Below are positions 3,428 to 62,870 of a DNA stretch of 64,000 nucleotides, piece after piece. Below the pieces are notes generated by a model that was not told where the DNA came from, searched no databases, and saw only the letters and a program-made list of their open reading frames with translations. The stretch is taken from the NCBI RefSeq assembly GCF_011045215.1, contig NZ_CP049201.1. One strand, written 5' to 3'. How positions within the stretch are numbered: position 1 is the stretch's first letter; the number at the start of each line of letters is the position of its first letter. This DNA comes from Escherichia coli (lineage in GTDB: Bacteria > Pseudomonadota > Gammaproteobacteria > Enterobacterales > Enterobacteriaceae). The position numbers and the translations under genes were made by a program.

Positions 3428-3515
3428 GGTGAGGTGTCCGAGTGGCTGAAGGAGCACGCCTGGAAAGTGTGTATACGGCAACGTATCGGGGGTTCGAATC
3501 CCCCCCTCACCGCCA
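3428..3515 (+). tRNA. serX: tRNA-Ser (anticodon GGA), serX
   Basis: 88-nt sequence GGTGAGGTGTCCGAGTGGCTGAAGGAGCACGCCTGGAAAGTGTGTATACGGCAACGTATCGGGGGTTCGAATCCCCCCCTCACCGCCA with long variable arm and CCA end; K-12 synteny between ghrA and ycdU. Confidence 0.95.
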
Positions 3516-43400: not shown

Positions 43401-46400
43401 ATTCTGCGTGTGGCGATTGATAAACTGCAGGGCGTTCAGCGTAATGGCAGAACCACTGCGAATCAGACCAGAGACGTTGTCCACAACGCCCCGTACACTG
43501 TCGAACAGAATGTCGCCCACAGACTGTATCTGTCCGTGGCTGTTCTGCAGGCCTCCCGTATGCAGACGGAGTTCACCTTCACTGACCAGCCGGCCACCCT
43601 CACGGTTATCCAGCGAGGTGGTGCTCAGGTCAGCTGTCGTTTTCGCCCCCACGGTCCCGCCCCGGTTATCCATTGCTCCGGTACTGACAGTCAGTTCCTG
43701 CAGGCTGTTCAGCGTACCCCCTCTGTTATCCAGCGTCCGGCCTGCGCTATTAATGCTGATGCCTTTCCCCTGAATAAGACCGGACTGATTGTTCAGCGCC
43801 AGACTGTTCCGGCCGGGCAGACCGGTCGCCACAATCTGACCATTCGCCACCACCTGACCGGATGTATTGTTAACCACGCCTGCAGTCAGGGACAGCGCAT
43901 CTCCCGACAAAAGCACACCGGCAGTGCTGTCCAGTGTGCCGGCATTCAGCGTCATCGGGCCCTGACTGATAACCCCGCCCCGGTCACCACTGTTACGGTT
44001 GCTCAGTGTGTCAGCACGGAGATTCAGTGTGGCACCGCTCTGTATCAGACCACCTGCATCATTGCTGATATCCGTCGAGGAAAGGGTCAGTGACTGCTGT
44101 GCCACCAGTCTGCCGCCCTGATTATCAGAGCGGGTGACATCCAGCCTGCTGTTACCGTTGCTGACCACCGTCCCCTGCTGATTTTCCAGCACATTCAGGT
44201 GCGCATTCAGGTCCCCGCCGGCGGCAAGCGTCCCTTCCTGATTACTGACATCGCCACCACTCAGCAACATATCCGTCCCGGCCTTCAGTGCGCCTTTCTG
44301 GTTCATCAGCGTACCTGACGATATCTGTAATGACGCCTGACTCCCCAGCACGCCCTGACGGTTATCGAGCGTTCCGGCGTTCAGGGTCATATCCTTCTGA
44401 CCCGCCATAAATCCCTGCTGGTTATTCAGCATACCGGCCCGTACTGTCAGGGTACCGGCGCTGCTGATACCACCCCGTGTTTTCGTGTTCCGGTTACTGA
44501 GAACCCCGTCCTGTACATCCAGCGTCATGTCACTGCCGGACTGAATCAGACCATCATCAGAGACCAGTTCGCTGCCTGACACAGACAGCGTTTTCTGTGA
44601 AAGCAGTCTGCCGGACGTATTATCCAGCGCACCATCCAGCGTCACGGACAGCCCGTCAGACACCACCGTACCCTGGTGGTTATTCAGACTCCCTGCCGAA
44701 ATATCCAGCCTGCCGGCGGACTCCATTCGTCCCTCAGTATTGCTGACAGCCTGCTGTGTTTTTATCCTGCCCGTTCCGGCAGCAGCTGAAATCAGTCCGT
44801 TGTCGTTATTCAGTGCCTGTGTATTAATCAGGATGTCACGGCTGGCAATCAGACTTCCCTGCTGGTTATCCACGGCGCCGGTTGTCCTCACCTGCAGACT
44901 ACCTGACTGCGCCGCCTGCACTTTCCCCCTGCGATTATCAAGGCTCAGTGCATCCAGGCGCACCGCGCCATTTGCCGCAAGCAGCCCTTCCCGGTTATCC
45001 ACACCTCCCGGCAGGTTCAGTGAAAAATCCCCTGTTCCCGTCTGAATCAGTTTACCCCTGTGGTTTGACAGGCTCTGTGCTGATATCTGCAGTGTGTCGG
45101 CATTTATCGTGCCGTCATTATTGCTGAACTGCCCGGCAGTCCGGGCGGAAAGCGTACCGGCACTCAGTTGCGCATTTTGCGTGAACAGATTTCCGCTGCC
45201 TGCATCCAGCTCAGTATGTTGTCCCTGTATCCGGCTGTTGCTTAAATCCAGCCCCTGCCCCTTCAGTTGCATGTCCCCACCGGACAGAACCTGTCCGTGT
45301 GCCGCCAGTTCGCCGGTGGTACTGACAGTCAGGTTGCCCGCTGCCGCCAGACGTCCGTCATCTTTCACCCCGGCGGCCAGCAGACTCCGCTCACCGCCGG
45401 TCAGACGCGCTGTCTGAATCCGGGTGTTGCGACGTGATGCCACAGAGCCTGTATGGGTGAATACACCATCACTCTGTATCTGCGTATCCTGCCCCGCATA
45501 AACAGAACCACTGTTATGCAGCTCCCGGGTTGTCACCAGATGCACATCCGTTTTCGCACTGATACTGCCACTGTTTTCAATTCGTCCGTCAGCCGTCAGG
45601 GTAACCGCCCCTGCCTGCGCACCAATATGACCGGCGTTACGAACACCCACCCCCGTTTCCGTACCGACAAGGCGAATTTTTCCGGCATACATTCCACCAA
45701 GGCTGGACACATCCAGCGCCACCTGTGGCTGCGAAGAGGCATCAGCGGCTTTTTTCTCAGTCTGCCCGTGTGCAATATCCACATTGTTACGTCCGGTGGT
45801 CACTTTCAGGTCCTGCGCCCAGATACCCGCATTAATCTTCACAGACCGGGCAATGATATCGGTATAATCCGTGCGCGAGGCATCCATCCCTTTGCCCGTA
45901 ATCTGAATCTCACCACGTTCAACACTGAATCCGGTCAGACTGCCGTTTTTCATCTGAGGCTGCCCCGTGGTCAGCGTGGCCCGGTTCGCATTAATAAAAC
46001 CGCACCCGTCGCAACTGATGCCGGCCGGGTTCGCAATCACCACCTGCGCCTTTTTCCCGGCAACCTCAACAAAACCGTTCAACTGGCTGGGATTGCGACT
46101 GTTCACTTCATTAAGAATGATTCGGGCCTCTCCCTTCGCCAGCCACGGGTTACCGGCAACCATGCCGCCCAGTTGGGTCTGCACATTTTTATGCGAGTTA
46201 TTCAGAATGACACCCTGATGACTGACATCAAACTGACTGTAAGTATTGTGCGATACCCCACCTGCAGAAGGTGTCTGGATATTGACCTGAGGAATGCCGC
46301 TGGCTGTCTGCGTAATCGTGGGCTGCTGATGCCCCGGTGCGCCATGGTCTGCGACAATGCCTGCAGCACTGACAGAATGCACCATCCCCGAGGCCAGCCA

Positions 46401-46565
46401 CAGGGAGAATGCAAGCGATGTGACACGGCAGATACGTTGCCTGCGTGGATATCCTGTACGGGAGGAGGGTGATGCACCGGCGCGACCGGAACGGGCAATA
46501 TCTGCCACCACCATCAGCATTCCCCGGGCTTTGTTAAAAATAATGCGGTAACAATTTTTGTTCAT
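37491..46565 (-). CDS. cdiA: CdiA contact-dependent growth inhibition exoprotein (two-partner secretion TpsA), 3024 aa; CT toxin 37494..38246 after VENN at 38247..38258
   Basis: Extended signal peptide MNKNCYRIIFNKARGMLMVVADIA, TPS domain, long hemagglutinin-type repeats, VENN motif (TTVENNYLSSKQ) 251 codons before the stop. Confidence 0.9.
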   Translation of the reverse strand: MNKNCYRIIFNKARGMLMVVADIARSGRAGASPSSRTGYPRRQRICRVTSLAFSLWLASGMVHSVSAAGIVADHGAPGHQQPTITQTASGIPQVNIQTPSAGGVSHNTYSQFDVSHQGVILNNSHKNVQTQLGGMVAGNPWLAKGEARIILNEVNSRNPSQLNGFVEVAGKKAQVVIANPAGISCDGCGFINANRATLTTGQPQMKNGSLTGFSVERGEIQITGKGMDASRTDYTDIIARSVKINAGIWAQDLKVTTGRNNVDIAHGQTEKKAADASSQPQVALDVSSLGGMYAGKIRLVGTETGVGVRNAGHIGAQAGAVTLTADGRIENSGSISAKTDVHLVTTRELHNSGSVYAGQDTQIQSDGVFTHTGSVASRRNTRIQTARLTGGERSLLAAGVKDDGRLAAAGNLTVSTTGELAAHGQVLSGGDMQLKGQGLDLSNSRIQGQHTELDAGSGNLFTQNAQLSAGTLSARTAGQFSNNDGTINADTLQISAQSLSNHRGKLIQTGTGDFSLNLPGGVDNREGLLAANGAVRLDALSLDNRRGKVQAAQSGSLQVRTTGAVDNQQGSLIASRDILINTQALNNDNGLISAAAGTGRIKTQQAVSNTEGRMESAGRLDISAGSLNNHQGTVVSDGLSVTLDGALDNTSGRLLSQKTLSVSGSELVSDDGLIQSGSDMTLDVQDGVLSNRNTKTRGGISSAGTLTVRAGMLNNQQGFMAGQKDMTLNAGTLDNRQGVLGSQASLQISSGTLMNQKGALKAGTDMLLSGGDVSNQEGTLAAGGDLNAHLNVLENQQGTVVSNGNSRLDVTRSDNQGGRLVAQQSLTLSSTDISNDAGGLIQSGATLNLRADTLSNRNSGDRGGVISQGPMTLNAGTLDSTAGVLLSGDALSLTAGVVNNTSGQVVANGQIVATGLPGRNSLALNNQSGLIQGKGISINSAGRTLDNRGGTLNSLQELTVSTGAMDNRGGTVGAKTTADLSTTSLDNREGGRLVSEGELRLHTGGLQNSHGQIQSVGDILFDSVRGVVDNVSGLIRSGSAITLNALQFINRHTQNTGQGLEAQTIHITTQDLDNQEGSILADRALTVMADRTLSNNDGVLSSGATLSVSGRQLAFSNRDGVVKAGQSVSVDVGQLGGDGKLLSPGDITLKSNTAFSNSGQTIANGNLTLSVNGDVSNTGSLLAGSRLDLNSIRLENTEKGEISAGQTWLNVTDTLLNRGLIDGKYTHLQANTLTNSGTGRIYGDAVGVSAATFNNLDENGVAATLAGRERVDLGVQTLNNRTHSLIYSAGDMHIGGMLDANGAATGKAGVLNNHSATIEAAGSLTLSAGQINNVNDHFTTERVVVSTEKVTEYQHRGSDVRWNAKDEGVFIDNNSSDGLLNLNTPDDTGHNNDRFTKYEYTRTVEETRVKDSDPGKILSGAGMTVVADKLLNDKSQVVAGGLLDMQAGDVENVSVSGERHVTDKGTSTYYYRIKRKNKNDRQGERISPYEPPPVIQTITLKPGELTSHGQVQGSQVTLSPLKPQGTDVQTGLTGNVDATVAVTDRIPLRPVVSAGEPVILLPGQQFEVSAPQGSIHVAGPDTRLPDSSLFKTNPAVNVPYLVETDPRFTNQKTWLGSDYMQKAFSQNGDNMLKRLGDGFYEQRLIREQVVALTGQRYLDGYSNDEEQFKALMDAGIAFGKQYNLTPGVALTAEQMALLTGDIVWLVNTTVTLPDGSTQTVQVPQVYARVKPGDVNSAGALIAGRDMVMKLDGDLFNSGKLAGKQAVQLSAENIHNQAGTIQGANVSLTARTDINSTGGLLQATDSLLAMAGRDISLTTTTRTAQRDAGQNHFERTSIDSVAGVYVQNDQGRLVLQAGRDMNLTAATVVNQGKDSLTQLSAGRDMTLSTVTTSAQDNITWDKNNRLSQGVTQNTGSTLAGNGDVTLTAGRDMTSQAASLSAQKGLALMAGHDVTLTGAQNTRSLDEYHKVTGNSGMLSKTTTTTHDVTDRRTMTGSELNGDTVSIGAGHNLNVTGSSVAGDNRVSLAAGNNLSIGTLTESNRETHLKQEKKSGLMSSGGVGFSVGSQSLKVTDTATDTTQKGSTVGSVHGDVSLQAGNRLTVNGSDLIAGRDMALSGKEVSITAATDRHVQTHTVEQKTSGLTLALSGTAGSALNTTVETVQAAKSAGNSRLEALQGVKAALSGAQAVQAGRLAEAQGNQKENNNTVGISLSYGSQSSKSEQQSEQTVAKGSTLTAGNNLSIQATGSGVKGVDGDLTIQGGQIKAGNNVLLQANRDVNLVSAENTSKLEGKNTSSGGSVGVGIGVGPGGPGFSLSASANQGKGSEKGNGTTHTETTVDAGNRLTIISGRDTTLTGAQAGGETVKVDAGRHLTLTSEQDSDRYDSKQQNASAGGSFTFGSMSGSASVNLSRDKMHSNYDSVQEQTGIFAGRGGFDVTTGQHTQLNGAVIASTATADKNRLDTGTLGFSDTENRADFKTEHQSAGLSTGGSVAGNFLGNMANNLLVGANHEGHADSTTQSAVSAGNITIRDTQSQKQDVADLNRDVAHANQTLSPIFDREKEQQRLQQAQLIGEIGNQVADIARTEGQIAGEKAKRDPAALNQARAELEAAGKPYTEQDVAQRAYNNGMAASGFGTGGKYQQAIQAATAAVQGLAGGNLSAALAGGAAPYIAEIIKQTTPDGAGRVAAHAVVNAALSLAQGKNALAGAAGAATGEVVGMIATQMYGKPVSELSETEKQTVSTLATVAAGLAGGLVGDSGASAVAGAQSGKTTVENNYLSSKQIDAWSAEMKSCQAKGGDCGGIIKKYEELSTAQQKQLISDCAASPATCQQKYGDVLTDSLAVKQAIDRALGEDIPIKMVYDLTATFAQQMQAEGVVATNKVSEALQEEYGLDEVQAGIVASAAASAFGGISKVKGNSQPKIEQILKPEKNWETARNKALDLVGNLGADSKPVIGRLEVSAGNGKVIGRQSSDGKVGWRVDYDPEKGTHINIWDYSQGKGPGKAVKQVIPFEGNEKSFETILKQLNR

Positions 46566-46580
46566 TCTGATAAACCTGAC

Positions 46581-47108
46581 TTATCTCTCCGGCACATCCA
46601 CAGCAAGCGGGTGCTGCACACGCCACTGGCGCGCCTCTTCACGACTGACCTGTGCACCCCGGAAATTCATCACCCGCAACCCGGTCTGCTGCCCACGGTG
46701 GTACAGCGAACGCCAGCACAGACGGGGAAAAATATCCTGCCGGACAAGACGACTCATATCCGGGGTATGTCCAAAAGGGGCAATCCAGTCACAGACCCAC
46801 ATCCGGTCGCCGCTGTTCCAGTCCGACTGAGGCATGAGAATTGCCGGCTGCGTAAGATAACGCGCCTCTGCCTCCGGGCTGAGCCAGGCCTGGCTCATGA
46901 AGAAAACCGGTCGCCCCTGCTCTGTTGCCACCACATACTGTCGGTGCTTAATCACCGGCAGCAGCAGGTCCGGCAGGGTATGCAGTGGCGCATCACGATG
47001 CAGGGGGGAGTGCATCCACAACCAGACGGCCGCCCCCAGGACTTCCGCCTCATTGACCGGCTCACCGGAATACAGGGGACTCAGAACGTCATATTTCCCG
47101 TTACGCAT
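46581..47108 (-). CDS. cdiC: CdiC, HlyC/RtxC-family toxin-activating lysine acyltransferase
   Basis: 175-aa ORF between the TpsB and TpsA genes; size and position typical of RTX-activating acyltransferases. Confidence 0.7.
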   Translation of the reverse strand: MRNGKYDVLSPLYSGEPVNEAEVLGAAVWLWMHSPLHRDAPLHTLPDLLLPVIKHRQYVVATEQGRPVFFMSQAWLSPEAEARYLTQPAILMPQSDWNSGDRMWVCDWIAPFGHTPDMSRLVRQDIFPRLCWRSLYHRGQQTGLRVMNFRGAQVSREEARQWRVQHPLAVDVPER

Positions 47109-47117
47109 GAAACTTTC

Positions 47118-48857
47118 TCAGAAATCCCGGAACAGATTAAAACCGGCTGTCACATCACTCGTCATAAAACCCGCCGGCTTTGAAAACGGACGACCGATGA
47201 AAACGTCATAATCCGTACTGAACAGTTGCCCCCTCAGCCCCACAACACCACCAGCCAGATGACGTCCCACCAGGTATTCACTGCCGGCTCCCCCCACCTC
47301 GCCGTAATCCATTCCCAGATATAACTCCTGCTCCGGCAGTGGCGTACGCCAGGCCAGGTCGTTGCGGATATACCAGCCGTTACTGGCATTCAGCGTTCGC
47401 TCCCCGTCAAAACCACGAACCGTCCAGCGGTTACCGATGGCAAACTGTTCCTGTGGGGTCAGCGGGGTATTGCTCAGCTGGCGCTGATACCGGAAGGAAT
47501 AACTGAAGGGCTGCCCTGCAAGGGTAAAGGGCAGATTAAAGGATGCATTCAACTGCAGGATCTTACTGAGCGCCGTTGCCTCACCGAACGTTTCTTCCGG
47601 CGCCGGCTGTGCACCAAACCAGCGGGTTCCCCGTTGCCAGCTGACACCAGCATCCAGTGTGGCCTGAGAAATATAATGACGGTGCTGCAGCCCAAGTCGC
47701 CAGGCCGCTGTCTGCCGGCGCTGCACCTGGATTTCCGTATCATTAATGTAGTTACGCGACCTGCGGGCCTGAACATCGTAGGTCAGCACCGTTTTCTGCG
47801 TCCCGTTACGGTGCAGTACCCGGCTCAGCTGCATACCCAGATTCTGACTCTCGCCACTGTACTGGTAATCCTCAACCGCACCAGCTACCGTCTGATGGTA
47901 ATCGTAATCACTGGCGGTGACGGAAAACTGCCAGTAGCCGAAAGGCACAGAGTAATGGGCCGTGTAGTTTTTACTGCCCTTACCCCCGTAATGTGGAAAA
48001 TTACGGGTGGCAGAAACATACAGCAGGTCACTCAGGGAAAAAGGATTATCCAGAGAAAATGTTATACCACCGAGATAACGCCCTGTGCTGCGGGTACCTG
48101 AATCATCAAGCGAAAACCCCAGTCGCCAGTATTTGTCCTGTTTGCGGGTAATAAGAATGTCACTTTCCCCTGGCTGCTCACCGGGTACAATTTCCATATC
48201 AGCCTGCACACCCGGCAGTCGTTGCATATTCTCCAGCCCCTGCTCAATGTCCCGTAAATCCAGCAGAGAACCTTCGTGTGCCGGGAATGAGGAATACAAC
48301 TGAATATAGTCATCACTGTCCGGTGTCAGACGCACATGTCGCACAACACCGGGAATAACAACCAGCCGGAGGATACCGCTTTTTAAATCCTGCGAAGGTG
48401 CCAGAACACGGGTGGTGACATAACCATGATCGACCAGACGGTTCTGCAATGTACTCATCAGCAGATTAATTCCTTTCGCCCCCAGGCAATGCCCGACCGC
48501 CCCGTTGGCGATTTTTTGTAAAGGCAGCCAGTGTGGTAACGCATCAGCCCCCTCCAGTTCCGTCTGTTTAATCTGAAAACAGGGCGTTTCAACAGGAAAA
48601 TTAATCTTACGGGCAAAAGAGCCAGGTGCAGAAAGGCGAACATCAGGGGCTGAAGGCGTCAGTTGTTGCTCAAGGGCTTCCTGACGCTGCTGCTGAATGA
48701 TAAATGCATTATCTCCGCTACGCCGGACATCCGCGGCCTGAAGAGATAAAGGCGATAATAAAACAGACATCAGTGTCAGTGACAGCAAGGACGGACAGCG
48801 CCGGAATACGCTTTGTTCCTCAGCCCTCTCGTTCCTGCAACATAATTTTCCAGTCAA
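47118..48857 (-). CDS. cdiB: CdiB, TpsB/FhaC-family outer-membrane transporter
   Basis: 579-aa ORF with signal peptide ([12 protein letters not shown]), POTRA-like region and C-terminal beta-barrel ending in F; true start may be an internal ATG ~87 nt downstream. Confidence 0.85.
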
Positions 48858-49926: not shown

Positions 49927-50012
49927 TCCCGTTTCCTTAGCACATGTTTTCAGGCACGGGTAAAAGTATAAAGAATGTCATACTGCTGCCAGAGCCCCCC
50001 CTGATGGTCGTA

Positions 50013-50636
50013 TCAGAGATGGTATGCCGGCACTTTGCGGGTTGTTCCCGTCAGGTTATCGTGCACCTCCACATTCGTTGTCACTACCGGCATTCCGCTC
50101 TGTCTTAATCTCAGGACATCAGCCGCAATACGCTGACTGCCAGACCAGAACAGCCCGTCCAGTGCGGTCACCAGTAAACCTGCTTCCAGCGCATACTTCA
50201 GCCGTTCACGGGACGCTTTCACTTCCCGGGCAACCTGCTGATATGGCAATGATGTGTTTTCATTCCCAACCACGCGACGAATACGGTGAGACAGATGATA
50301 CCGGAATGTATCCGGCACACCCGAAAGGCTGGCCTTCAGGCTGTACACGCAGCCAAACCGTTTATCGTTGAACACCACATTTTTCTGGCTGATGCCCCAT
50401 TCTTCACGCAGCGCGGCAATCAGTTGTGGTGTCCGGGTAAGCAGCAAGCGAAAAGGCAGCTCAAAACTGGTGACGTAATCCACATTCAGCAGTGCAATAC
50501 GCAGCCGTTCTTCTGGCCCGGCCCCTGTCTGCCGGCACTCATCCAGAACATCCTGCCACTGCCGACGAAGACGTGGAGATTCATTCAGTTCTGTAAAACA
50601 GTATTTATTCACCAGATAATCAATTCGTGTACGCAT
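50013..50636 (-). CDS. Hypothetical island protein (207 aa)
   Basis: ORF with reasonable coding potential; no motif recognised. Confidence 0.5.
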   Translation of the reverse strand: MRTRIDYLVNKYCFTELNESPRLRRQWQDVLDECRQTGAGPEERLRIALLNVDYVTSFELPFRLLLTRTPQLIAALREEWGISQKNVVFNDKRFGCVYSLKASLSGVPDTFRYHLSHRIRRVVGNENTSLPYQQVAREVKASRERLKYALEAGLLVTALDGLFWSGSQRIAADVLRLRQSGMPVVTTNVEVHDNLTGTTRKVPAYHL

Positions 50637-50895
50637 AATATAGATTCAGGAAACAATAAAAGCTGAATAAGCCCATATTTCATTGGGAAAACTGCAGTGT
50701 CAATACCAAAATGTTGCTCAAATCGTAGTAGAAGTATGGGATGTAGCGTTCAGGGTATTAAGAAACTTTTAGTTGACTACGATTGGTAAAATACATTAAT
50801 TTTTATTGCGGTTGCGTTTAATAGACTGCGGAGCGTGTTAACGCTCTAAATAAAAGTACTTAAGATGGCATAAATGTTACAAGACCAGGATAATT

Positions 50896-51291
50896 ATGGC
50901 TGAATTTACTGTAAGATCGAAGGATGAACTCGAAAAAGCTCAAAACAGCAGAGCTGAAATTATAATTATTGAAGGAGAGTTAGCAAATAAAATTAAAAAA
51001 GCAAAGGCTGTAACAAAAGTAAGTGGTGTTGTTATTGCTGCCATGATCGCAACTTGTGCTACTATTCCACTCACTGGTGGAGGTTCTGTTTTAGCTGTTA
51101 GTTCTTTAGCTGCATTATCCGGACTTGATATCGCTGTTATTATTGCTGCAGCATCCATTGGTATTGCTCTGGTTATTACTGTTTTCCGCGATTACGAAGA
51201 AATTGAATTTAGCAATGGAAAGATGATATTAAAGTTAAAACGTAAAAAAACTGAGTCTACAACTGACAAAAATGAGAAAAAGCAGAAGTGA
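50896..51291 (+). CDS. Small membrane protein with glycine-zipper-like hydrophobic core and lysine-rich tail (131 aa)
   Basis: Strong RBS region (ccaggataattATG); AT-rich. Confidence 0.5.
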   Translation: MAEFTVRSKDELEKAQNSRAEIIIIEGELANKIKKAKAVTKVSGVVIAAMIATCATIPLTGGGSVLAVSSLAALSGLDIAVIIAAASIGIALVITVFRDYEEIEFSNGKMILKLKRKKTESTTDKNEKKQK

Positions 51292-51598
51292 AAGGTCTGT
51301 GCATCGGAATATGAACATATTTTAGTAATATTTTAATAAATCGTAAAGCCTCTATATTCAGAACCACGAAATAGAGGTGTTTTAAACTGCAACTGTTATC
51401 TCAATTTTTATCGAGGCGCCATTAAAACAAATACCCCGTTCTGCTGTTTTCTGATTATGCCATGAGATTAAAAACACTAATTTTTGATTGAATTGTATAT
51501 ATACATTGTAATACAAGATTTAAATACATATTTCTTCTTTTTTATCTGTAATCTATTATTATCAATAATCACATGAACAATATCAGAGGCAACACATT

Positions 51599-52372
51599 AT
51601 GAATAAAGCTGAAGTTCTGGAAAAAGGTTATTGGATTGAAATCAGTATTGATGCATATGCACAAAAAGTTAAGGGTATATCACGAGATGACTACCCACCA
51701 TTACGTTGTATCTCATGCGAGAAACCTGTCCATGATAGCGGATTAGTCACTCCCAATCCTGATTATAGCCCCAGATTCTCTCATTCCGCTTCACCAGAAA
51801 ATAAAGAGTTCTGTCCCCTAAGCGCAAGATCTCAACGTTTTTCTGGTTTTTCAGGTAATGAACGCTCTGCTTCAGCAGAAATTGCAGTATCTCGCCGAAA
51901 TCAATTCATGCAATTTGATAACCTCTATCGGGCCTGGGTTGTTTGTAGAGCATTAAGGGGAGGTGAAGGGAAGCTTGATCAAAAATCATTCATTCGGATG
52001 GTCAGGATCGCGGATAGTTTTGGGATCTGGCATTATAGCTATATGCCTGACTGGGGAATCCCTCTTATGCTAATGTTAATGGATAACCACCCGACACCAA
52101 ATGGTAAATCAACTTTTTTCTATTCATTAAAAAAAGAACGTGTTCGAAAAGGTGTAAAATGGCAAGATCTAAATGTCAGACTTGAAGCACATTGGGTAAA
52201 TGGTGGTAACCGCATAGTTCCAAATAAAGATAAAAAAGCTTCATTCTTGCTCACCATTCCATTTGCTAAGTCTGTTATTGATGAAATACTGAGTAAAGAA
52301 AATCTGTCATGGTGCTCAAAAAACTCTCTACCAATATTGCATTCTTTTAGCATTAGAGCTTTAACCACTTAA
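51599..52372 (+). CDS. Hypothetical protein (257 aa), AT-rich
   Basis: ORF co-oriented with 50896..51291; no motif recognised. Confidence 0.5.
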   Translation: MNKAEVLEKGYWIEISIDAYAQKVKGISRDDYPPLRCISCEKPVHDSGLVTPNPDYSPRFSHSASPENKEFCPLSARSQRFSGFSGNERSASAEIAVSRRNQFMQFDNLYRAWVVCRALRGGEGKLDQKSFIRMVRIADSFGIWHYSYMPDWGIPLMLMLMDNHPTPNGKSTFFYSLKKERVRKGVKWQDLNVRLEAHWVNGGNRIVPNKDKKASFLLTIPFAKSVIDEILSKENLSWCSKNSLPILHSFSIRALTT

Positions 52373-52662
52373 TTGAGGAAGTAATGATACAAGCTACAGT
52401 ATTGGTGACGAATCTATAGACAAGGAGATAAAAACCAAATATCAGAATTATTTTTGATAGTGCTGGTAAAGAAGCGGTGTTTGATATCAGCATGTTTATC
52501 GGAAAAAAGCTTACCTGGAGCTTTGAAAAATTGCAAAGCAGGGCCTGACAATGAAGGCCCTAATACTGTACTAAATGTTAACTCAGTACCAAATCACAAG
52601 GAAAAGTATTTTTTCTGGTAAGATTCTATATACATAATAAATCACCTTATAGTTACAATAGG

Positions 52663-53166
52663 TCAAAAACCGCTGTAGCCAAAGTTACGCTGGCCTGATG
52701 CTTTAGTGTCGAGCTTCGTCAAATAATCCAGACGTACCAATAAGCGCTGGTACTGCTCAGGGAAATCAGGATCGTTAATATCCAGGATGTAACGCCCATT
52801 AGTAGGGAAATGAACTAATCCCTGGTGATCTTCCAGTTCCAACCCTAAGGCACTGTACCAGGCTCCGGTAATTAACCCTCTCAGGGTGTCAGAGCGCTCA
52901 TAGTCTCCCAGGTGGTAATAGGCGTCTTTGTTAAACAACAGGCAGACGTGATAATGACATTTAAAGGACTGCGTATATTCTTTCGCCCAGATAATACAAA
53001 CCGACGTTGCGTAGGTGCGTTTGCCTTGTTGTTTTTTACGGTGTTGATCTGCATTAATTTTCGCATTCAGCGAGTTACGGAAACGAGATATTTCTCCGGG
53101 GGTCAGGTTAGGAAAACAGGTAATGGTATCCCCGTTGTCAATCACAGGAGGGTAATGGAGATCCAC
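52663..53166 (-). CDS. YagK/YfjJ-family (inovirus Gp2-type) protein, short form
   Basis: CHYHVCLLFNKDAYYHLG resembles the conserved HYH-x-LF-x-x-DAY motif region of YfjJ-like proteins. Confidence 0.6.
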   Translation of the reverse strand: MDLHYPPVIDNGDTITCFPNLTPGEISRFRNSLNAKINADQHRKKQQGKRTYATSVCIIWAKEYTQSFKCHYHVCLLFNKDAYYHLGDYERSDTLRGLITGAWYSALGLELEDHQGLVHFPTNGRYILDINDPDFPEQYQRLLVRLDYLTKLDTKASGQRNFGYSGF

Positions 53167-53280
53167 CCGTATTGCTGTTATTCTGGAAGTATTTTTAATA
53201 TTCGTATTGATAGTTCTCAGAGATATATCACACTCTAGATATTTTAATTAAGTATCAGTTCGATATCGGCATATTGTACA

Positions 53281-53644
53281 CTACCTCTGGTAGATGATGA
53301 GATCAGATACAGGGATCAACTGACGGTGAGCGCAGTCCCCACATTTTATCCAGGGCTTACTGCATATTCCCAACAGCCATTCGTTAGCCAGGTAGACGAA
53401 TACCCTTTCCGCTGGTTTTGCTTTCCCATCGAAGGGCCCATACATCATCACGCCCGCGAAACAGTCGACAAAATAACGCAACTTTCTCATCCGTGGATAA
53501 TACGAAAACGCACTGCACAGGGCTCTGCGGTTTACGTCGCCATTCAATCCCATGAGCTTCAAGTAATGAGACCAGCCGGGTATTTTCTGCCCGCAGTACT
53601 GCTAGTTCATCGCTGTCAGATTTATAAACCATATGCGTTATCAC
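53281..53644 (-). pseudogene. Frameshifted 5' remnant of a larger gene
   Basis: Two overlapping minus-strand ORFs in different frames (53384..53644 and 53281..53562) that read like consecutive parts of one N-terminus; no continuation downstream. Confidence 0.4.
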
Positions 53645-53738
53645 TTGTACCTGTCTCCCGGCGGCACCACGACTGAAATTCGTGTGAAGGCAAATCCACG
53701 CGATAACTTACGATAGTTCGGACATAAGCCCCCATAAT

Positions 53739-54302
53739 TCAGTTATGTCGTGGTCGGCCGCGGTTACTTTTTTCGGGAAGCCTGCTACGCCCCAGAATAA
53801 TACCGTGTTCTTTCTGATCCTGTTTCGCCAGATAGCTAAGGGCGTAACGTAAGTCGTCTACCGCAGATTTATCACTATAGTGAATTACATGATCGATACG
53901 CACCGGGTATTTATCTTTAGCCCGGCACAGGTGAAAATAACCCTCCCCTTCCGTGATCCGCCTCCAGATATCTCCCAGTTGCCTGGATATCTGATAAGAG
54001 TTCTTGTGACGTTGTCCATCCAGATAGCCGATAAAATGAATATGAAGCCCTTTGTCTGGTGTATATTCCATTACCCAGTAATATCCCGCCAACATCGTCT
54101 GGGTTTCGCTAAGTAAGCGGTACATTTCCATACACATACTGTGCTTACAGGAAAGACCAAAACTGGGCGTGTCTTTCCTGTAAGCAAAATCAATTCTGAA
54201 AGGTAACAGTTTAGAAAAACGTTGAAACAGACCTTCCATGTGTTCATTCACATCTTTCAGAATCGCGAAATTCATTTCGTAATTGGGATTGGCATTATAC
54301 AT
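53739..54302 (-). CDS. YagK/YfjJ-family (inovirus Gp2-type) protein
   Basis: LPFRIDFAYRKD ... GLHIHFIGYLDG pattern as in YfjJ-like island proteins. Confidence 0.6.
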   Translation of the reverse strand: MYNANPNYEMNFAILKDVNEHMEGLFQRFSKLLPFRIDFAYRKDTPSFGLSCKHSMCMEMYRLLSETQTMLAGYYWVMEYTPDKGLHIHFIGYLDGQRHKNSYQISRQLGDIWRRITEGEGYFHLCRAKDKYPVRIDHVIHYSDKSAVDDLRYALSYLAKQDQKEHGIILGRSRLPEKSNRGRPRHN

Positions 54303-55240
54303 TTTATAGTCCTTACTTTATAAAACTGACAGGAAAGTGGAATTACATAAATACTGAGAGTACAGAAACGCCGTACCGCGGCATTAATAAAAGAGGTAAC
54401 CAGCAGCACAGACAACCTGATAAAACTGTTTCGTATTACCTCATTACAGTAATAGGGTAATGATTCAGAATACAGTAAGACTTTCTTAAACTGAGGACCA
54501 GAACGAATTACAATAAAAAACACACCTCATATAATTGAGTTTAAGAAAGCACCATTCAATTACTTACAGGATATAATCTGATCTTCACAAAAGTCAGTAC
54601 CGGGTAGCCACAGACAACATCGCTATTAATATTGCCGTACCATTAAGTAAAAACAGAGACTCTGCAGAGAGAGCCTACAGATATTTAACCTCACAATAAG
54701 AAGATTATTTCATACAGAAAATATTATATTTACCTATGCTTATAAACTGTAACGGAGCCATAACATACTCTAATAGTGTTCCGGTACGTAACCAGTGTTA
54801 AGTGCGTACAAGACAACATAACATAACAGATTTATGTTCCCAACATTACACCACATAATTCACCATACAGCTTCCCCCCATATGCTTCACTGCGTAGTGT
54901 ATGGAGATATATGTATTACACACATACAGAATACTTAGCATAGAGAGGAGTGACATTACGATAAAAGAGACAACATAACAGATCACATAACTCCCACTAA
55001 TAATACTAATTAACCTAAATTATTTATTGAACACGAAAACAATGAAGGCCCCACCTCACCTCAGACTAAAGCCGACAATATCCTGAGCAACACTCTATCC
55101 AATAGTAAATAGTGGTTACACCAGTTATATTTACTGACTGACCTGTACCAGAGTTTTCTAATACAACGCTGACATGGTAAAGACATTAGTCTCCTCCGCA
55201 AGTAGCAGAGGAGACTATATGTACTCAACGATTAAGTCGT

Positions 55241-56692
55241 TCAGAGGTCAAAGTTAGGTGCGACACACAACGTTTTTCCCTCAATAACCGGTACAACTCT
55301 GTTTTGTTCATACAGTAAATCCAGTAACCAGTTGATTTTATCCTTTTTCCGGAAACGGTTCGGGCCACGCTGTAAAATGTCATTTTTTTTCATACAGAGG
55401 ATCCCCTTCTCAATGCAATAGCTTTTTATCCAGTTGAAAAGTTCAAGCTCCTCTGGAATGAGTCGCACAGGTACGGTCAGGGCGGAGTTGTCAAAAGTTA
55501 ACGGATTAGACAACCGCACATACTCATTACCGTACCATATTGCTAATTCTCTCGCCATTTCTGCAGTGTAAGGGGAAATCTCCCCCTCTTCACCGCTCGA
55601 ATGGTAAATAAGTCCTGCCAGTCTTGCCATATACTCTGCATTTTTAGCAGCATATTCCCGGCAATGTCTTAAAGGCCCCAATCCCCCCAGCTTCGATTCC
55701 ACATCATTGTAATAATCCGTCCAGATTCTGGCAGCCTGAGGAGAAAAGTGAAGGCAACGTCGTTCACCACTCATCGCCAGACTTTCATCAATAAGCTCAT
55801 TGATCCTCTCTTCAAACAAATCCTGATACTGTGATGAATAATTATCTCCGGTTATTATCCTTGTCCCCTGCGTTGATGTTGGTTGACACATCAAAAACCT
55901 TGCATGATGTCCTGACGTTTTCACAAGTTCTTTTTTTCGCGTACAAAAACCTTTGTGGTAAACATCAGGCTGAATCATCACCGATATCGTCAGTCTTGGC
56001 TCCTTCAAATTAATTCCGGGAGATGATTTCCTGTCGATGAAAAGAGAACCTCCATCCCACAAAGTGTTAATAATTCCCAGTTTACTCATGGCCCGGCTGT
56101 CAAAAATTACCCCCCCTTCACTGGATACAAGAGCAAAAGAGCGATTGCTATCAGAGTAATATTTTAACATTCCCTCTATCGTTGTCTCATTAAAAATTGT
56201 TCGACGTATCTGCGGCGGAACAGGAGATTTATTCAGATGCGTTTCAAGCTCTGATTCTGTTGCCTTGTAATCTTTACCGGCACGAATCTCTTTATGAAAT
56301 TTTGATTCCAGCGCTTTTTGTTTTTGCTCCCATATTTCCTTTTCTGTACTGTAATTCTCAACCAGTTTCGCGTATTCTTCCGCCAGGGCTTCATCCCTGA
56401 GATAAAATGCTTTCATAAACACTTTATCCACGGTCGTTTTCCTTTCACCGGAATCAGCCAGAATCAGAGAGTAAAGATTAACAGGCCCATGTAAATTTCC
56501 AGGTCTGCACACGTCAATCTGATTCTGACAGGCAATTGAGATCGCTGTTAATGCGGATGTTGCCACCATAGCCAAAGGTGCCTGTGTATTTTTTTGAGTT
56601 TCAATTATTGCATTTCTCACCAGCGGTGGTAGTGCATATATCGGATAAGGATTTTCTGGTGCAAGTAAGCACATAAAAGCCTCTCTTTTCAT
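55241..56692 (-). CDS. DUF3987-family protein (YfjI-like), usual partner of AlpA in P4-type islands
   Basis: 483-aa ORF downstream of alpA; start codon uncertain. Confidence 0.65.
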   Translation of the reverse strand: MKREAFMCLLAPENPYPIYALPPLVRNAIIETQKNTQAPLAMVATSALTAISIACQNQIDVCRPGNLHGPVNLYSLILADSGERKTTVDKVFMKAFYLRDEALAEEYAKLVENYSTEKEIWEQKQKALESKFHKEIRAGKDYKATESELETHLNKSPVPPQIRRTIFNETTIEGMLKYYSDSNRSFALVSSEGGVIFDSRAMSKLGIINTLWDGGSLFIDRKSSPGINLKEPRLTISVMIQPDVYHKGFCTRKKELVKTSGHHARFLMCQPTSTQGTRIITGDNYSSQYQDLFEERINELIDESLAMSGERRCLHFSPQAARIWTDYYNDVESKLGGLGPLRHCREYAAKNAEYMARLAGLIYHSSGEEGEISPYTAEMARELAIWYGNEYVRLSNPLTFDNSALTVPVRLIPEELELFNWIKSYCIEKGILCMKKNDILQRGPNRFRKKDKINWLLDLLYEQNRVVPVIEGKTLCVAPNFDL

Positions 56693-56892
56693 TAATGGGT
56701 TAGTAAAATAGCAGCAACTCCCGCTACAATAGCGAAAATAGCTGCTATTCAGACCTGATGCTCTGAGAAATACTGAGCATTTGTAGATCTGATGTTTAAT
56801 AAACCGATAAGGTTAATTCAGTGCAGACTGTATTATTTACCACGAAATATCATTCATATTTCTCATTCTTAATACCTCCAGAAATTATTTCA

Positions 56893-57090
56893 CTAATACC
56901 TTTCCCCCGGTCTTTTCCCTTTCTCCAGAACCATAGTGTAAATATTAACGGCCCCACGTAAATTTCCGGGGCTGCATACGTCAACCTGATTCTGACAGGC
57001 AATTGACATCGCTGTTAATACTGACATTGCAACCAGAGTCAGAGGTACTTGTTTATTGTATTGAGCTTTAATTATTGCCTTCCCTATCAT
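56893..57090 (-). pseudogene. Duplicated 5' fragment of the DUF3987 gene
   Basis: 65-aa ORF ...LTLVAMSVLTAMSIACQNQVDVCSPGNLRGAVNIY... paralogous to residues ~35-80 of the 55241..56692 product. Confidence 0.6.
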
Positions 57091-57316
57091 TGATGGTCAC
57101 GTATATACTGAATACGGCATATCCGGTTTGATGTAAGACATAAATGCTTCCTTTTTCGTAATACGTTTCGGTTATAGCAGCAATTACCGCTACAATAGCG
57201 ACAATAGCTGCTCTTTCAACAATGAATGCTGGAAATTCTGTTTATCAATTAAACTTCTGGCTAAATTGTTCTTATGCTTCTTTTTCCTCCTGAGGTGATC
57301 ACGTGATGACAAAAAC

Positions 57317-57625
57317 TTATCTGCTCATGGTCATATCTGAAGAAAGCGTATGTCGCACTTCGTCATTAACACCTTTGACTGCTGATCTGGCAGGTACAGT
57401 ATGTAAAGTAAGCCATTCGTCAATAGCTGATGAACGCCAGCCCACAGAACCACTACCAAGACGTACCGGCCTGGGGAAGGTTGCATCGTAGTATTTCGAT
57501 AACGGATTCATTTTTTCGTAAATTGTCGAACGAGATATACCTAACAATTGGCTCAGTTCAGGCATCCGTAAGATGCGTGAAGGAGTCCAGCAGTATCCGG
57601 ATTGATCTGGCATTTTATCCCCCAT
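57317..57625 (-). CDS. alpA: AlpA-family phage-type transcriptional regulator (excisionase-like)
   Basis: LRMPELSQLLGISRSTIYEKMNPLSKYYDATFPRPVRLGSGSVGWRSSAIDEWL matches the AlpA HTH core; start uncertain (ORF extends to 57697). Confidence 0.75.
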   Translation of the reverse strand: MGDKMPDQSGYCWTPSRILRMPELSQLLGISRSTIYEKMNPLSKYYDATFPRPVRLGSGSVGWRSSAIDEWLTLHTVPARSAVKGVNDEVRHTLSSDMTMSR

Positions 57626-57836
57626 AGTGTGGTGAACTGTCGTTACAGTTTGTATTCCCCGGGTAAATTTGTCTGCGTAAAAAAATGGGCTGAGCAAAAA
57701 GACAATAAATAATTAAAAATCAATACGATAGAAAACAACAGCATTATTGTTATTTTACTTTCTCCTTATCACTGTCGATTCTCATTATCATTCATTGGTA
57801 AAAAAACAGCAAAAGAGGCCCTGGTAATGACTCCAG

Positions 57837-58229
57837 TCAGTAGTACAGTGTTTTCGATAAATGAACCAATGGCTTTTCGTGAATTTCCAGGGAGCGTGAA
57901 AAGCAAATCGTTTTCCGGGCTGGTCGTTTGATGTGAGTACGAAGTGTCAGATTGTTGCGCTCAATGCGCCGGGTAAATATCTTGCCGACAAGATGCTTAT
58001 CCTGTGGCATTTCTCTGGTATAACTGCTCCGGTTGTCTCTGGTTATCATGCCTGTGGAGAATGGCTTCAGGAGTTCCGGCAACTCACGACATGTTTCATC
58101 AGTGCGAGGACCAAAAGTGTAAGCCAGCACACCTCCAGATTTGGTGTTATACGCATACCAGTGCCACTGCTGACGAGCTTTGTTTTCGACAAAACTCCAT
58201 TGTTCATCAAGTTCGCAGATAAGCGCCAC
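57837..58229 (-). mobile_element. IS1-family transposase (InsB-like) remnant, diverged and truncated
   Basis: ICELDEQW...YAY...RIERNNLTLR resembles the IS1 InsB core; no intact InsA or terminal repeats identified. Confidence 0.45.
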
Positions 58230-60730: not shown

Positions 60731-61933
60731 TTATTTATTCACAATTTGAGACATCACATAATCCGCCCATGCCTGCATCATCGGTACACGCTGCTCCAGT
60801 AGATCAGTGCGATGATATGCCGCCTCAACCTTATTTTTCAGCGTATGAGCGAGCGCCCTTTCCGCCAGATCCCGCGAATACCCCTGTTCACTACACCAGT
60901 CCCTGAATGTTGAGCGAAAACCATGTGCCGTGGCAACTCGCCCCGGAATGTCACTGACGGCTTTCTTTTTACGCAGAAAACTTGTCAACACCATATCGGA
61001 AAGGATCTGCTGCTTTCTGGGTGAAGGGAACACCAGTTCATCATGCAGGCCACGTATATTTTCCAGAATGTAAATAGCCTGCCGGGATAAAGGAACACGA
61101 TGCTGTAGCCTAGCTTTCATTCTTTCTGCAGGTATAGTCCATACCCGCTTATGAAAATCAATTTCAGCCCAGCGCATTCCCCTGGCTTCGCCCGAGCGAG
61201 TTGCTGTAAGTATCACCATTAATAACAGTGCGCGGGTAACATTATAAGGTTCATCACTATACACACTGGTCGCCACAAAAAGCGGTAACTGCCTCCAGGG
61301 CATTGCGGGTTGGTGTTCATCACGTCCTCTTGTCTGCTGAGGAAGCAAATGGTCAACCACATCAACAGGATTTGCCACACAAAAACCGTGCGCCCATCCC
61401 CACTGCATAACAACATGAATGCGCTGTTTAACCCGGCTTGCCGTTTCTGACAAGGTTAACCAGACTGGACGCAATGTTTCTGCCACGTCCGCAGCCGTAA
61501 TCGAATCCAGCGTTTTTGCTCCCAGTTGAGGAAACGCGTAATTCTCAAGCGTCGATAACCACTGCCTTACATGCTTTGGATTTTCCCATCCAGGAGACAG
61601 TTCTGCATGTACACGCCTGGCTGCATCGGCAAATGTTGGGATAACGACTTTCTCAGATTCAGCCTTTTTAATCTCCAGAGGATCATCACCTGCAGCAAGT
61701 TGCTCTCGCATTATCCGGGCAGTACGTGCAGCTTCAGCAATACTGACCTCTGGGTAAGTTCCCAATCCAGCATTACGTCTTTTTTGTGTCACCGGACTTA
61801 CATAACGAAAAACCCATTTCCCCCGCCCCTTTACTGAAGAAGGATGAAGGGTCAGTCCGGTAATTCCCCCATGGGGCAATGGTTTGTCATCAGGTTTGAT
61901 ATGTCTTGCTTTCGTATCCGTCAATACTGCCAT
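60731..61933 (-). CDS. P4-type tyrosine integrase
   Basis: 400-aa ORF with catalytic R...HxxR...Y core (ATAHGFRSTFRDW; C-terminal tyrosine region) adjacent to the tRNA-3'-end repeat. Confidence 0.9.
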   Translation of the reverse strand: MAVLTDTKARHIKPDDKPLPHGGITGLTLHPSSVKGRGKWVFRYVSPVTQKRRNAGLGTYPEVSIAEAARTARIMREQLAAGDDPLEIKKAESEKVVIPTFADAARRVHAELSPGWENPKHVRQWLSTLENYAFPQLGAKTLDSITAADVAETLRPVWLTLSETASRVKQRIHVVMQWGWAHGFCVANPVDVVDHLLPQQTRGRDEHQPAMPWRQLPLFVATSVYSDEPYNVTRALLLMVILTATRSGEARGMRWAEIDFHKRVWTIPAERMKARLQHRVPLSRQAIYILENIRGLHDELVFPSPRKQQILSDMVLTSFLRKKKAVSDIPGRVATAHGFRSTFRDWCSEQGYSRDLAERALAHTLKNKVEAAYHRTDLLEQRVPMMQAWADYVMSQIVNK

Positions 61934-62149: not shown

Positions 62150-62870
62150 ATGCGCCTATAAGGCTCTCTTACCAGCCGCGCCCTAACAGGCGCACACGAT
62201 CTGACATTTGCATCCAACTTCGTTACTTACGGCCCGTAAACGGGCTGCCCGGATAGGGAATCGATAACTGCTCTCCCATTTCATCCTCTTCAAGCTGGTG
62301 CTTTATGTAATCCTGTATCTTCGCCGTGTTCTTACCCACCGTATCGACGTAGTACCCTCTGCACCAGAACTCCCTGTTCCTGTATTTGAATTTCAAATCC
62401 CCAAACTGCTCATAAAGCATCAGACTGCTTTTCCCTTTCAGATATCCCATAAAGCCGGATACGCTCATTTTGGGCGGGATCTCCACAAGCATATGGATAT
62501 GATCTGCACAGCATTCAGCTTCAAGAATCCGTACGCTTTTCCACTCACACAGCTTTCTCAAAATACTGCCTATTGCTCTACGCTTCTCTCTGTAGAACAC
62601 TTGTCTTCGGTATTTTGGCGCAAAAACTATGTGATATTTACAGTTCCATCGGGTGTGCGCTAAGCTCTTTTCGTTCCCCATTGGGACCCCCTTTTGATTT
62701 CTTGTTTGACACTTGCAGTTGCCAGACCGCAAGGTGTTTTAACAAATCAAAAGGGGTTTTAATAACTGGCTCAAAGCTGAAAGCTTTCCGGAACCCCCAG
62801 CCTAGCTGGGGGTTTTCTGTGCACAAGAAGAGCCCGTACGAAAGTACGGGCTTTTTTTTCGTATATTGCA
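62150..62870 (-). mobile_element. IS200-family insertion sequence (approximate ends)
   Basis: Contains a Y1 HUH transposase gene and a hairpin agcccgtac-gaaa-gtacgggct followed by T-run at 62831..62861; ends estimated from typical ~0.7 kb size. Confidence 0.7.
62223..62681 (-). CDS. tnpA: IS200 transposase TnpA (HUH Y1 family)
   Basis: MGNEKSLAHTRWNCKYHIVFAPKYRRQ...ADHIHMLVEIPP... near-identical to recalled IS200 TnpA. Confidence 0.9.
   Translation of the reverse strand: MGNEKSLAHTRWNCKYHIVFAPKYRRQVFYREKRRAIGSILRKLCEWKSVRILEAECCADHIHMLVEIPPKMSVSGFMGYLKGKSSLMLYEQFGDLKFKYRNREFWCRGYYVDTVGKNTAKIQDYIKHQLEEDEMGEQLSIPYPGSPFTGRK

Follow-up and report, generated by a model that had tools for sequence, protein, structure and literature searches.

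A probable pseudogene remnant of an island-encoded primase-helicase gene at an apparent fusion of two genomic-island backbones in Escherichia coli

Introduction

Two overlapping minus-strand open reading frames (ORFs) lie at positions 53281-53644 of a 64-kb stretch of Escherichia coli DNA (contig NZ_CP049201.1; the whole stretch is called the window below), and they raise the question of whether they encode a product of their own or are the residue of a larger gene. ORF A (53384-53644) encodes 86 aa from a GTG codon, or 82 aa from the homologous ATG at 53632, and ORF B (53281-53562) encodes 93 aa; the two lie in different frames and overlap by 179 nt. An initial annotation, made from the letters alone, read them as consecutive parts of one protein N terminus from an inactivated gene with its downstream portion deleted, and suggested a larger island-encoded enzyme as the original. 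Our reading, which we hold at a probability of roughly 0.93 on the basis of sequence comparison, is that the feature is a nonfunctional pseudogene comprising the first ~349 nt of a 2361-nt island gene for an archaeo-eukaryotic primase (AEP) of PrimPol type joined to an XPB/Rad25-like SF2 helicase.

Results

Both frames align to the N terminus of a single protein

A translated alignment tolerant of frameshifts, the check proposed at the outset, recovered one homologue that covers both frames. When an intact 786-aa homologue (L003:4988-7348:-) was compared with the window by tblastn, aa 1-76 aligned to 53632-53405 in frame -1 with 87% identity and aa 84-116 to 53388-53290 in frame -2 with 82% identity, at a joint E value of 4e-45; the two ORFs thus do represent consecutive parts of one N terminus. 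The limits 53281-53644 are correct as the ends of the two ORFs, but the homologous remnant itself is shorter and is made up as follows.

53290-53632, minus strand: whole putative pseudogene remnant, codons 1-116 of a 786-codon AEP (PrimPol)-SF2 helicase gene (tblastn and DNA alignments)
53405-53632, minus strand: segment A, aa 1-76, frame -1, with the ATG at 53632 (tblastn)
53389-53404, minus strand: patch of 16 nt in place of 21 nt (aa 77-83, SGYSPAC; DNA alignments)
53290-53388, minus strand: segment B, aa 84-116, frame -2 (tblastn)

DNA alignment against intact genes shows 4 bp to be missing at gene nt ~224-228 and 1 bp at ~248, two frameshifting lesions 16 nt apart and within 30 nt of each other that, together with clustered substitutions, account for the patch. 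The remnant is therefore read through three frames and not two: the ORFs do differ in frame, as first noticed, but the 16 nt at 53404-53389 use the third, in which a three-frame translation gives KGYSSTW. Beyond aa 76 the frame of segment A remains open to a stop at 53384-53386, which yields the 82-aa ORF, and segment B is followed by Q-R-stop encoded by foreign DNA.

Homology to intact genes stops at window position ~53290, equivalent to gene nt ~349, after codon 116. We found no tblastn match to aa 117-786 of the parent anywhere in the 64-kb window (best stray E = 1.4), and the C-terminal ResIII/DEAD plus Helicase_C (XPB-like) module likewise had none. Judged by its scores against the Pfam family AEP-TOTE (PF22548; gathering score, 27 bits), membership of the remnant holds for ancestry and not for a complete domain: frame A reached 28.0 bits (E 2.1e-6; residues 53-80, profile positions 1-28 of 230) and frame B 19.7 bits, under the cutoff. 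The complete catalytic AEP fold (~230 profile positions, with a DNA_primase_S-like core at parent aa 147-251) is absent, the homology in the window ending at parent residue 116. Frameshift and truncation relative to full-length homologues, the grounds for PGAP-style pseudogene calls, are both present.

Overlapping frames that encode consecutive protein segments might also be expected if programmed ribosomal frameshifting joined them, or if an assembly or sequencing artefact had interrupted an otherwise functional gene. We regard this as next to impossible. Both the -4 and the -1 lesion would need repair, and the repaired frame would still cover just 116 of 786 codons; the remaining 670 codons are missing from the window, which already refutes the idea, and the same indels recur across numerous complete genomes and metagenome contigs of independent origin. 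The 4-bp deletion was present in all 7 of 7 contigs from independent assemblies that share the window's junction (type 1 below), and so is no sequencing artefact.

The parent gene and its place in the island backbone

The intact gene is 2361 nt long and encodes a 786-aa protein with both a PrimPol and an SF2 helicase part, so the suggestion of a larger island-encoded enzyme was well founded. Intact copies occur in O157:H7 FRIK2455 (WP_000233452.1) and in UTAK-8 (WP_000233443.1, annotated as 'DEAD/DEAH box helicase family protein'). Compared with these proteins, the remnant has 82-87% protein identity over aa 1-76 and 84-116 and occupies the same position, directly downstream of an inovirus-type Gp2 gene, but it stops after codon 116, is frameshifted by two deletions and has neither the remainder of the AEP domain nor any of the helicase. 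Pfam assigns residues 49-277 of the intact protein to AEP-TOTE (330.8 bits, profile positions 1-228) and residues 423-738 to ResIII/DEAD and Helicase_C, and the PADLOC 'PrimPol' model matches it at E 1.4e-144. The closest solved relatives are the CRISPR-associated PrimPol 7nqd/7nqf for the N-terminal half and the XPB/Rad25 and RadD helicases for the C-terminal half. Its role may lie in island replication or in anti-phage conflict.

The parent gene belongs to the integrase-AlpA-YfjI-Gp2 backbone conserved among tRNA-type genomic islands; when intact, these islands have the order integrase, AlpA, YfjI (DUF3987), inovirus-Gp2-like HUH protein and then the primase-helicase gene. The window preserves this order, with the integrase at 60731-61933, AlpA at 57317-57697, YfjI at 55241-56692, Gp2a at 53739-54302 and then the remnant, and the same succession, ending in either the primase-helicase gene or a remnant, was seen in four further loci (L003, L008, L010 and L016). 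The remnant thus lies directly 3' of an inovirus-type Gp2 gene within an int-AlpA-YfjI-Gp2 backbone, and all loci examined have a gene of the Gp2a type as the conserved neighbour 5' of the primase-helicase gene.

53739-54302, minus strand: Gp2a, intact upstream neighbour, inovirus-type Gp2/HUH Rep-like, 187 aa (Pfam and annotation)

Within the Gp2a coding sequence, at window positions 54142-54186, there is a perfect 16-nt inverted repeat consisting of TGCTTACAGGAAAGAC, 13 nt and GTCTTTCCTGTAAGCA, and a third copy of 12 nt (CTGACAGGAAAG) lies at 54326-54337, just upstream of the Gp2a start. These repeats might be a candidate origin or operator for the Rep-like protein.

Comparison with known primase and helicase systems

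Three better-known systems share parts of the parent protein or its setting. CRISPR-associated PrimPol (CAPP; PDB 7nqd/7nqf) matches the intact parent's AEP domain at E 6.7e-8, and the score of that domain against NCBIfam PrimPol_Msp (NF040561; E 3.7e-24, 85 bits) is far under the 200-bit family cutoff; unlike CAPP, the parent has no CRISPR context and is fused to an XPB-like helicase.

The K-12 island CP4-57 also carries a helicase gene beside yfjI-yfjJ in a related backbone, namely yfjK, which encodes AbpB of the AbpAB anti-phage system. YfjK differs from the parent in being encoded on the opposite strand, in lacking an AEP domain and in being paired with AbpA. We rejected YfjK/AbpB as an intact homologue, given a BLASTP match of E 0.008 confined to the P-loop region and the opposite orientation, and we likewise rejected membership of AbpAB (YfjL-YfjK), there being no homology to YfjK beyond the P-loop and no AbpA-like neighbour among the annotated neighbours of the intact gene in the loci examined.

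The third system gives its name to the PF22548 family. As defined in PMC12458937 (citing Aravind et al. 2022), a TOTE conflict system comprises TPR, OB, TBP and Effector components, its partners being a TPR-OB/CSD fusion gene and a gene for a TATA-binding-protein-like protein. This AEP family is the only domain family that the parent has in common with TOTE systems. Using annotation and Pfam scans of window ORFs, we found Gp2, YfjI, IS elements and small hypothetical genes beside the intact gene (L003, L008) and beside the remnant, with no TPR, OB or TBP neighbour annotated at either. Because TPR-OB and TBP neighbours are missing from these annotations, we rejected genuine TOTE operon membership in the sense of PMC12458937.

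The remnant is joined to the backbone of a second island

The sequence immediately downstream of the remnant resembles a different island, from E. coli O166:H15 (L014), whose gene order is HTH-YfjI-Gp2b-hyp257-hyp131-ECs1377.

53287-53291, minus strand: truncation/fusion junction, ...ATCTACCA/GAGGTAG... (slash at the break), end of homology to intact genes
53189-53289, minus strand: AT-rich linker of ~100 bp, derived from the spacer between YfjI and Gp2b in a second island, of L014 type
52663-53188, minus strand: Gp2b', 5'-truncated second gene of the Gp2/YagK-YfjJ family, itself a pseudogene (Pfam YagK_YfjJ_C, E 7.5e-50)

The partner sequence in the O166:H15 island reads ..ATAACAGAGC.., which leaves a 2-nt CA microhomology at the junction, and positions 53189-53246 of the linker are identical at 50 of 58 positions to the DNA 56-113 nt upstream of the Gp2b start in that island. 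Further along, Gp2b' is 93% identical to the intact 204-aa WP_000628304.1 from residue ~23/31 onward (tblastn). Relative to L014:3340-3954 it has suffered a 144-bp deletion between TTYCAG repeats, which removed 55 nt of leader with the ribosome-binding site, the start codon and ~30 codons. The 257-aa protein encoded at 51599-52372 is 98% identical to its O166:H15 counterpart and had no match in Pfam, NCBIfam or PADLOC. On the other side, the window's YfjI (55241-56692) and that of the O166:H15 island are just 39% identical, and Gp2a and Gp2b are essentially unrelated. Since the stub is joined to DNA of a different island, with a left flank like that of O166:H15 and a right flank unlike it, the window is a chimera of two island backbones. 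The deletion of the downstream part proposed at the outset is right in that 670 codons are missing from the window, but what replaced them is a fusion to another island's backbone and not the edge of a simple internal deletion.

The following course of events would explain this arrangement. A type A island (int-AlpA-YfjI-Gp2a-primase-helicase-cargo) and a type B island (...YfjI-Gp2b-hyp257...) would have resided on one molecule, most simply in tandem, and an illegitimate recombination or deletion at the 2-nt CA microhomology would have joined nt ~349 of the primase-helicase gene to the YfjI-Gp2b spacer of island B. With the fusion, island A would have lost its cargo, the entire helicase and what remained of the AEP domain, and island B its integrase-proximal part. 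The two small deletions, of 4 bp and 1 bp, would be further decay that frameshifted the stub.

The only hairpin found at the breakpoint, one of 5 bp in the window (CTACC-AGA-GGTAG), was created by the junction itself. An Rfam scan of 50000-58000 gave zero matches. The linker at 53189-53289 is an insertion hot spot for IS2, IS1 and IS3 in other strains (L002, L004, L006 and L013), and the target sites there correspond to window positions ~53189 for IS1, ~53220 for IS2 and ~53269 for IS3.

Sister alleles are decaying in different ways

Elsewhere among 5426 complete E. coli genomes, the same DNA was found at 98% identity between two Gp2/YagK-type genes, where PGAP labels it 'TOTE conflict system archaeo-eukaryotic primase domain-containing protein; frameshifted; incomplete; missing C-terminus'. 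PGAP pseudogene calls on the remnant were present in four of our loci (L001, L002, L004 and L006), and pseudogenes of the same gene include ACZ5DF_RS06205 (OkiPb01695), NLZ09_RS17945 (LH13-b) and LHL15_RS18560 (EC20). These have the same junction and the same 4-bp and 1-bp deletions as the window and are 98% identical to it in DNA sequence; the stub described here is what PGAP already flags as a pseudogene, and is therefore known and ordinary. The window allele has point differences of its own (best match, 98.4%) and reads CAGAGG at the junction where the PGAP pseudogenes read CTGAGG. It keeps the ATG and is free both of the 17-bp deletion and of an IS in the linker. Outside E. coli, the type strain of E. 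albertii has the type-1 junction as well.

These sister alleles bear on whether the stub could be maintained for a product. From its sequence, the largest product it would give is an 82-aa peptide devoid of any catalytic part, composed of a coiled-coil-like DELAVLRAENTRLVSLLEAHGIEW segment and the first AEP strands. Such a peptide might be kept because it is functional, for example as a regulator or in a dominant-negative partnership with intact copies; both the window and LH13-b preserve the start codon and ORF, and remnants are widespread, with a stub and nothing more in over half of the ~1818 E. coli genomes that carry the gene. Alleles with the same junction have nonetheless lost the ORF in several ways: the start is changed from ATG to ATA in EC20, CUPF09, L023 and L039, a TGG>TAG nonsense mutation interrupts codon 69 in OkiPb01695, and a frameshifting 17-bp deletion at codons ~17-22 leaves 18 aa in others. 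The peptide, moreover, is no stand-alone Pfam domain, AEP-TOTE spanning residues 49-277 of the parent, and no minus-strand promoter-like site was found in 52500-54700, where promoter and terminator counts did not exceed those of shuffled sequences. We therefore consider a functional peptide very unlikely.

Insertions of IS1, IS2, IS3 and IS5-family elements in or beside the stub add to the lesions in sister alleles, and because these extra lesions differ from one allele to the next, the stub appears to be decaying, in keeping with our reading of it as a nonfunctional pseudogene. The dN/dS ratio between the remnant and intact alleles was low (0.14-0.26); most of the divergence is older than the inactivation, having been gained while the parent allele was still functional, so the ratio does not tell a dead stub from a maintained one.

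Truncated forms predominate, and two classes break at nearly the same point

Any trace of the gene was present in 1818 E. coli genomes, with 746 of the 1818 continuous across nt 150-600 and ~60% retaining a 5' stub only. The stubs fall into three classes. Type 1, the class of the window, breaks at nt ~349 and occurs in ~100-135 genomes; type 2 breaks at nt ~349-351, is joined to 184 nt and a gene for a 1652-aa AAA-domain protein, and occurs in at least 296 genomes; and type 3, with a break at nt ~250 as in ST131/JJ1886, accounts for about one-third of carriers, a share estimated from a spread sample. Five of our loci (L010, L011, L012, L016 and L019) are of type 2, the class being commoner than type 1. 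The window's 1-bp deletion, at gene nt ~248, falls within ~2 nt of the JJ1886 (L009) truncation at nt ~245-250, a second near-coincidence of lesions.

The breakpoints of types 1 and 2 lie within 1-3 nt of each other and are followed by unrelated DNA (ATCTACCA/GAGGTAG versus ATCTACCAC/TACACGG). Type 2 is not a simple insertion, since the missing 3' part of the gene was absent from the 30 kb of DA33137 downstream of the junction. The coincidence could reflect chance, a preferred recombination point, or common descent of the stub end with its partner later replaced, for instance by way of an IS that has since been lost.

That the truncation is nonrandom, with nt ~346-351 serving as a preferred recombination site, a backbone-cargo boundary or the footprint of a former mobile element, is in our judgement unlikely. 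Its appeal lies in the two remnant classes that break 1-3 nt apart and continue into unrelated partners, and in an A at 10 nt before the break that an exact-motif scan found in 21 of 21 truncated contigs and 0 of 18 intact ones. Against this, just two types of junction partner, types 1 and 2, turned up in all collections searched (5426 E. coli genomes, 100,044 species-representative genomes and a metagenome scan), and secondary structure at this site in the intact gene is unremarkable (z = +1.1). A search of the DNA flanking the remnant for repeats and IS ends detected no IS end, repeat or att-like sequence at the junction, its one find being the unrelated 16-nt inverted repeat within Gp2a, and no reciprocal 3' fragment of the gene was found in the E. 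coli genomes or DA33137. In the largest stub class the break is at another place, nt ~250, and the agreement between two events may be fortuitous, or one of the junctions may derive from the other.

We regard as quite improbable the proposal that the int-AlpA-YfjI-Gp2 backbone has repeatedly been joined to different cargo at nt ~346-351, whether as a specific point of recombination or as a scar left by a mobile element since lost. If it were true, the stub would mark a mechanism of cargo exchange instead of random decay, with a second island backbone (in the window) and the module of the 1652-aa AAA-domain gene as the partners. More speculative still, and by analogy, the adjacent HUH (Gp2-like) protein might act at this site in the manner of IS91/ISCR elements, which have fixed ori ends.

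Surroundings of the remnant in the window

Several other features of the window were recorded around the pseudogene. On the integrase side, a 605-aa hypothetical gene and an IS1 transposase fragment (57837-58229) separate the integrase from AlpA, with the fragment lying between the 605-aa gene and AlpA, and an IS200-like Y1 transposase (62223-62732) is found just beyond the integrase (60731-61933). No tRNA gene adjoins the integrase, the only tRNA in the window being tRNA-Ser(GGA) at 3428-3515. On the other side, 50013-52372 is syntenic with the O166:H15 island and encodes an ECs1377-family protein of 207 aa and hypothetical proteins of 131 and 257 aa. A contact-dependent inhibition locus occupies 37491-48857, left of the island backbone, and comprises a CdiB-type ShlB/POTRA transporter (47118-48857) and a 3024-aa CdiA (37491-46565) with TPS, haemagglutinin repeats and a PT-VENN pre-toxin domain. 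Farther left, a weak tblastn match to the helicase half of the intact protein at ~24740-25042 on the plus strand suggests an unrelated SF2 helicase or restriction-subunit-like gene.

Discussion

In itself the stub carries little weight, and its practical value is as a marker of a chimeric island. The near-coincident breakpoint of two stub classes poses a small question about how cargo is exchanged between islands, and the stub-only state seen in ~60% of carriers bears on autonomous replication or defence by islands of this kind.
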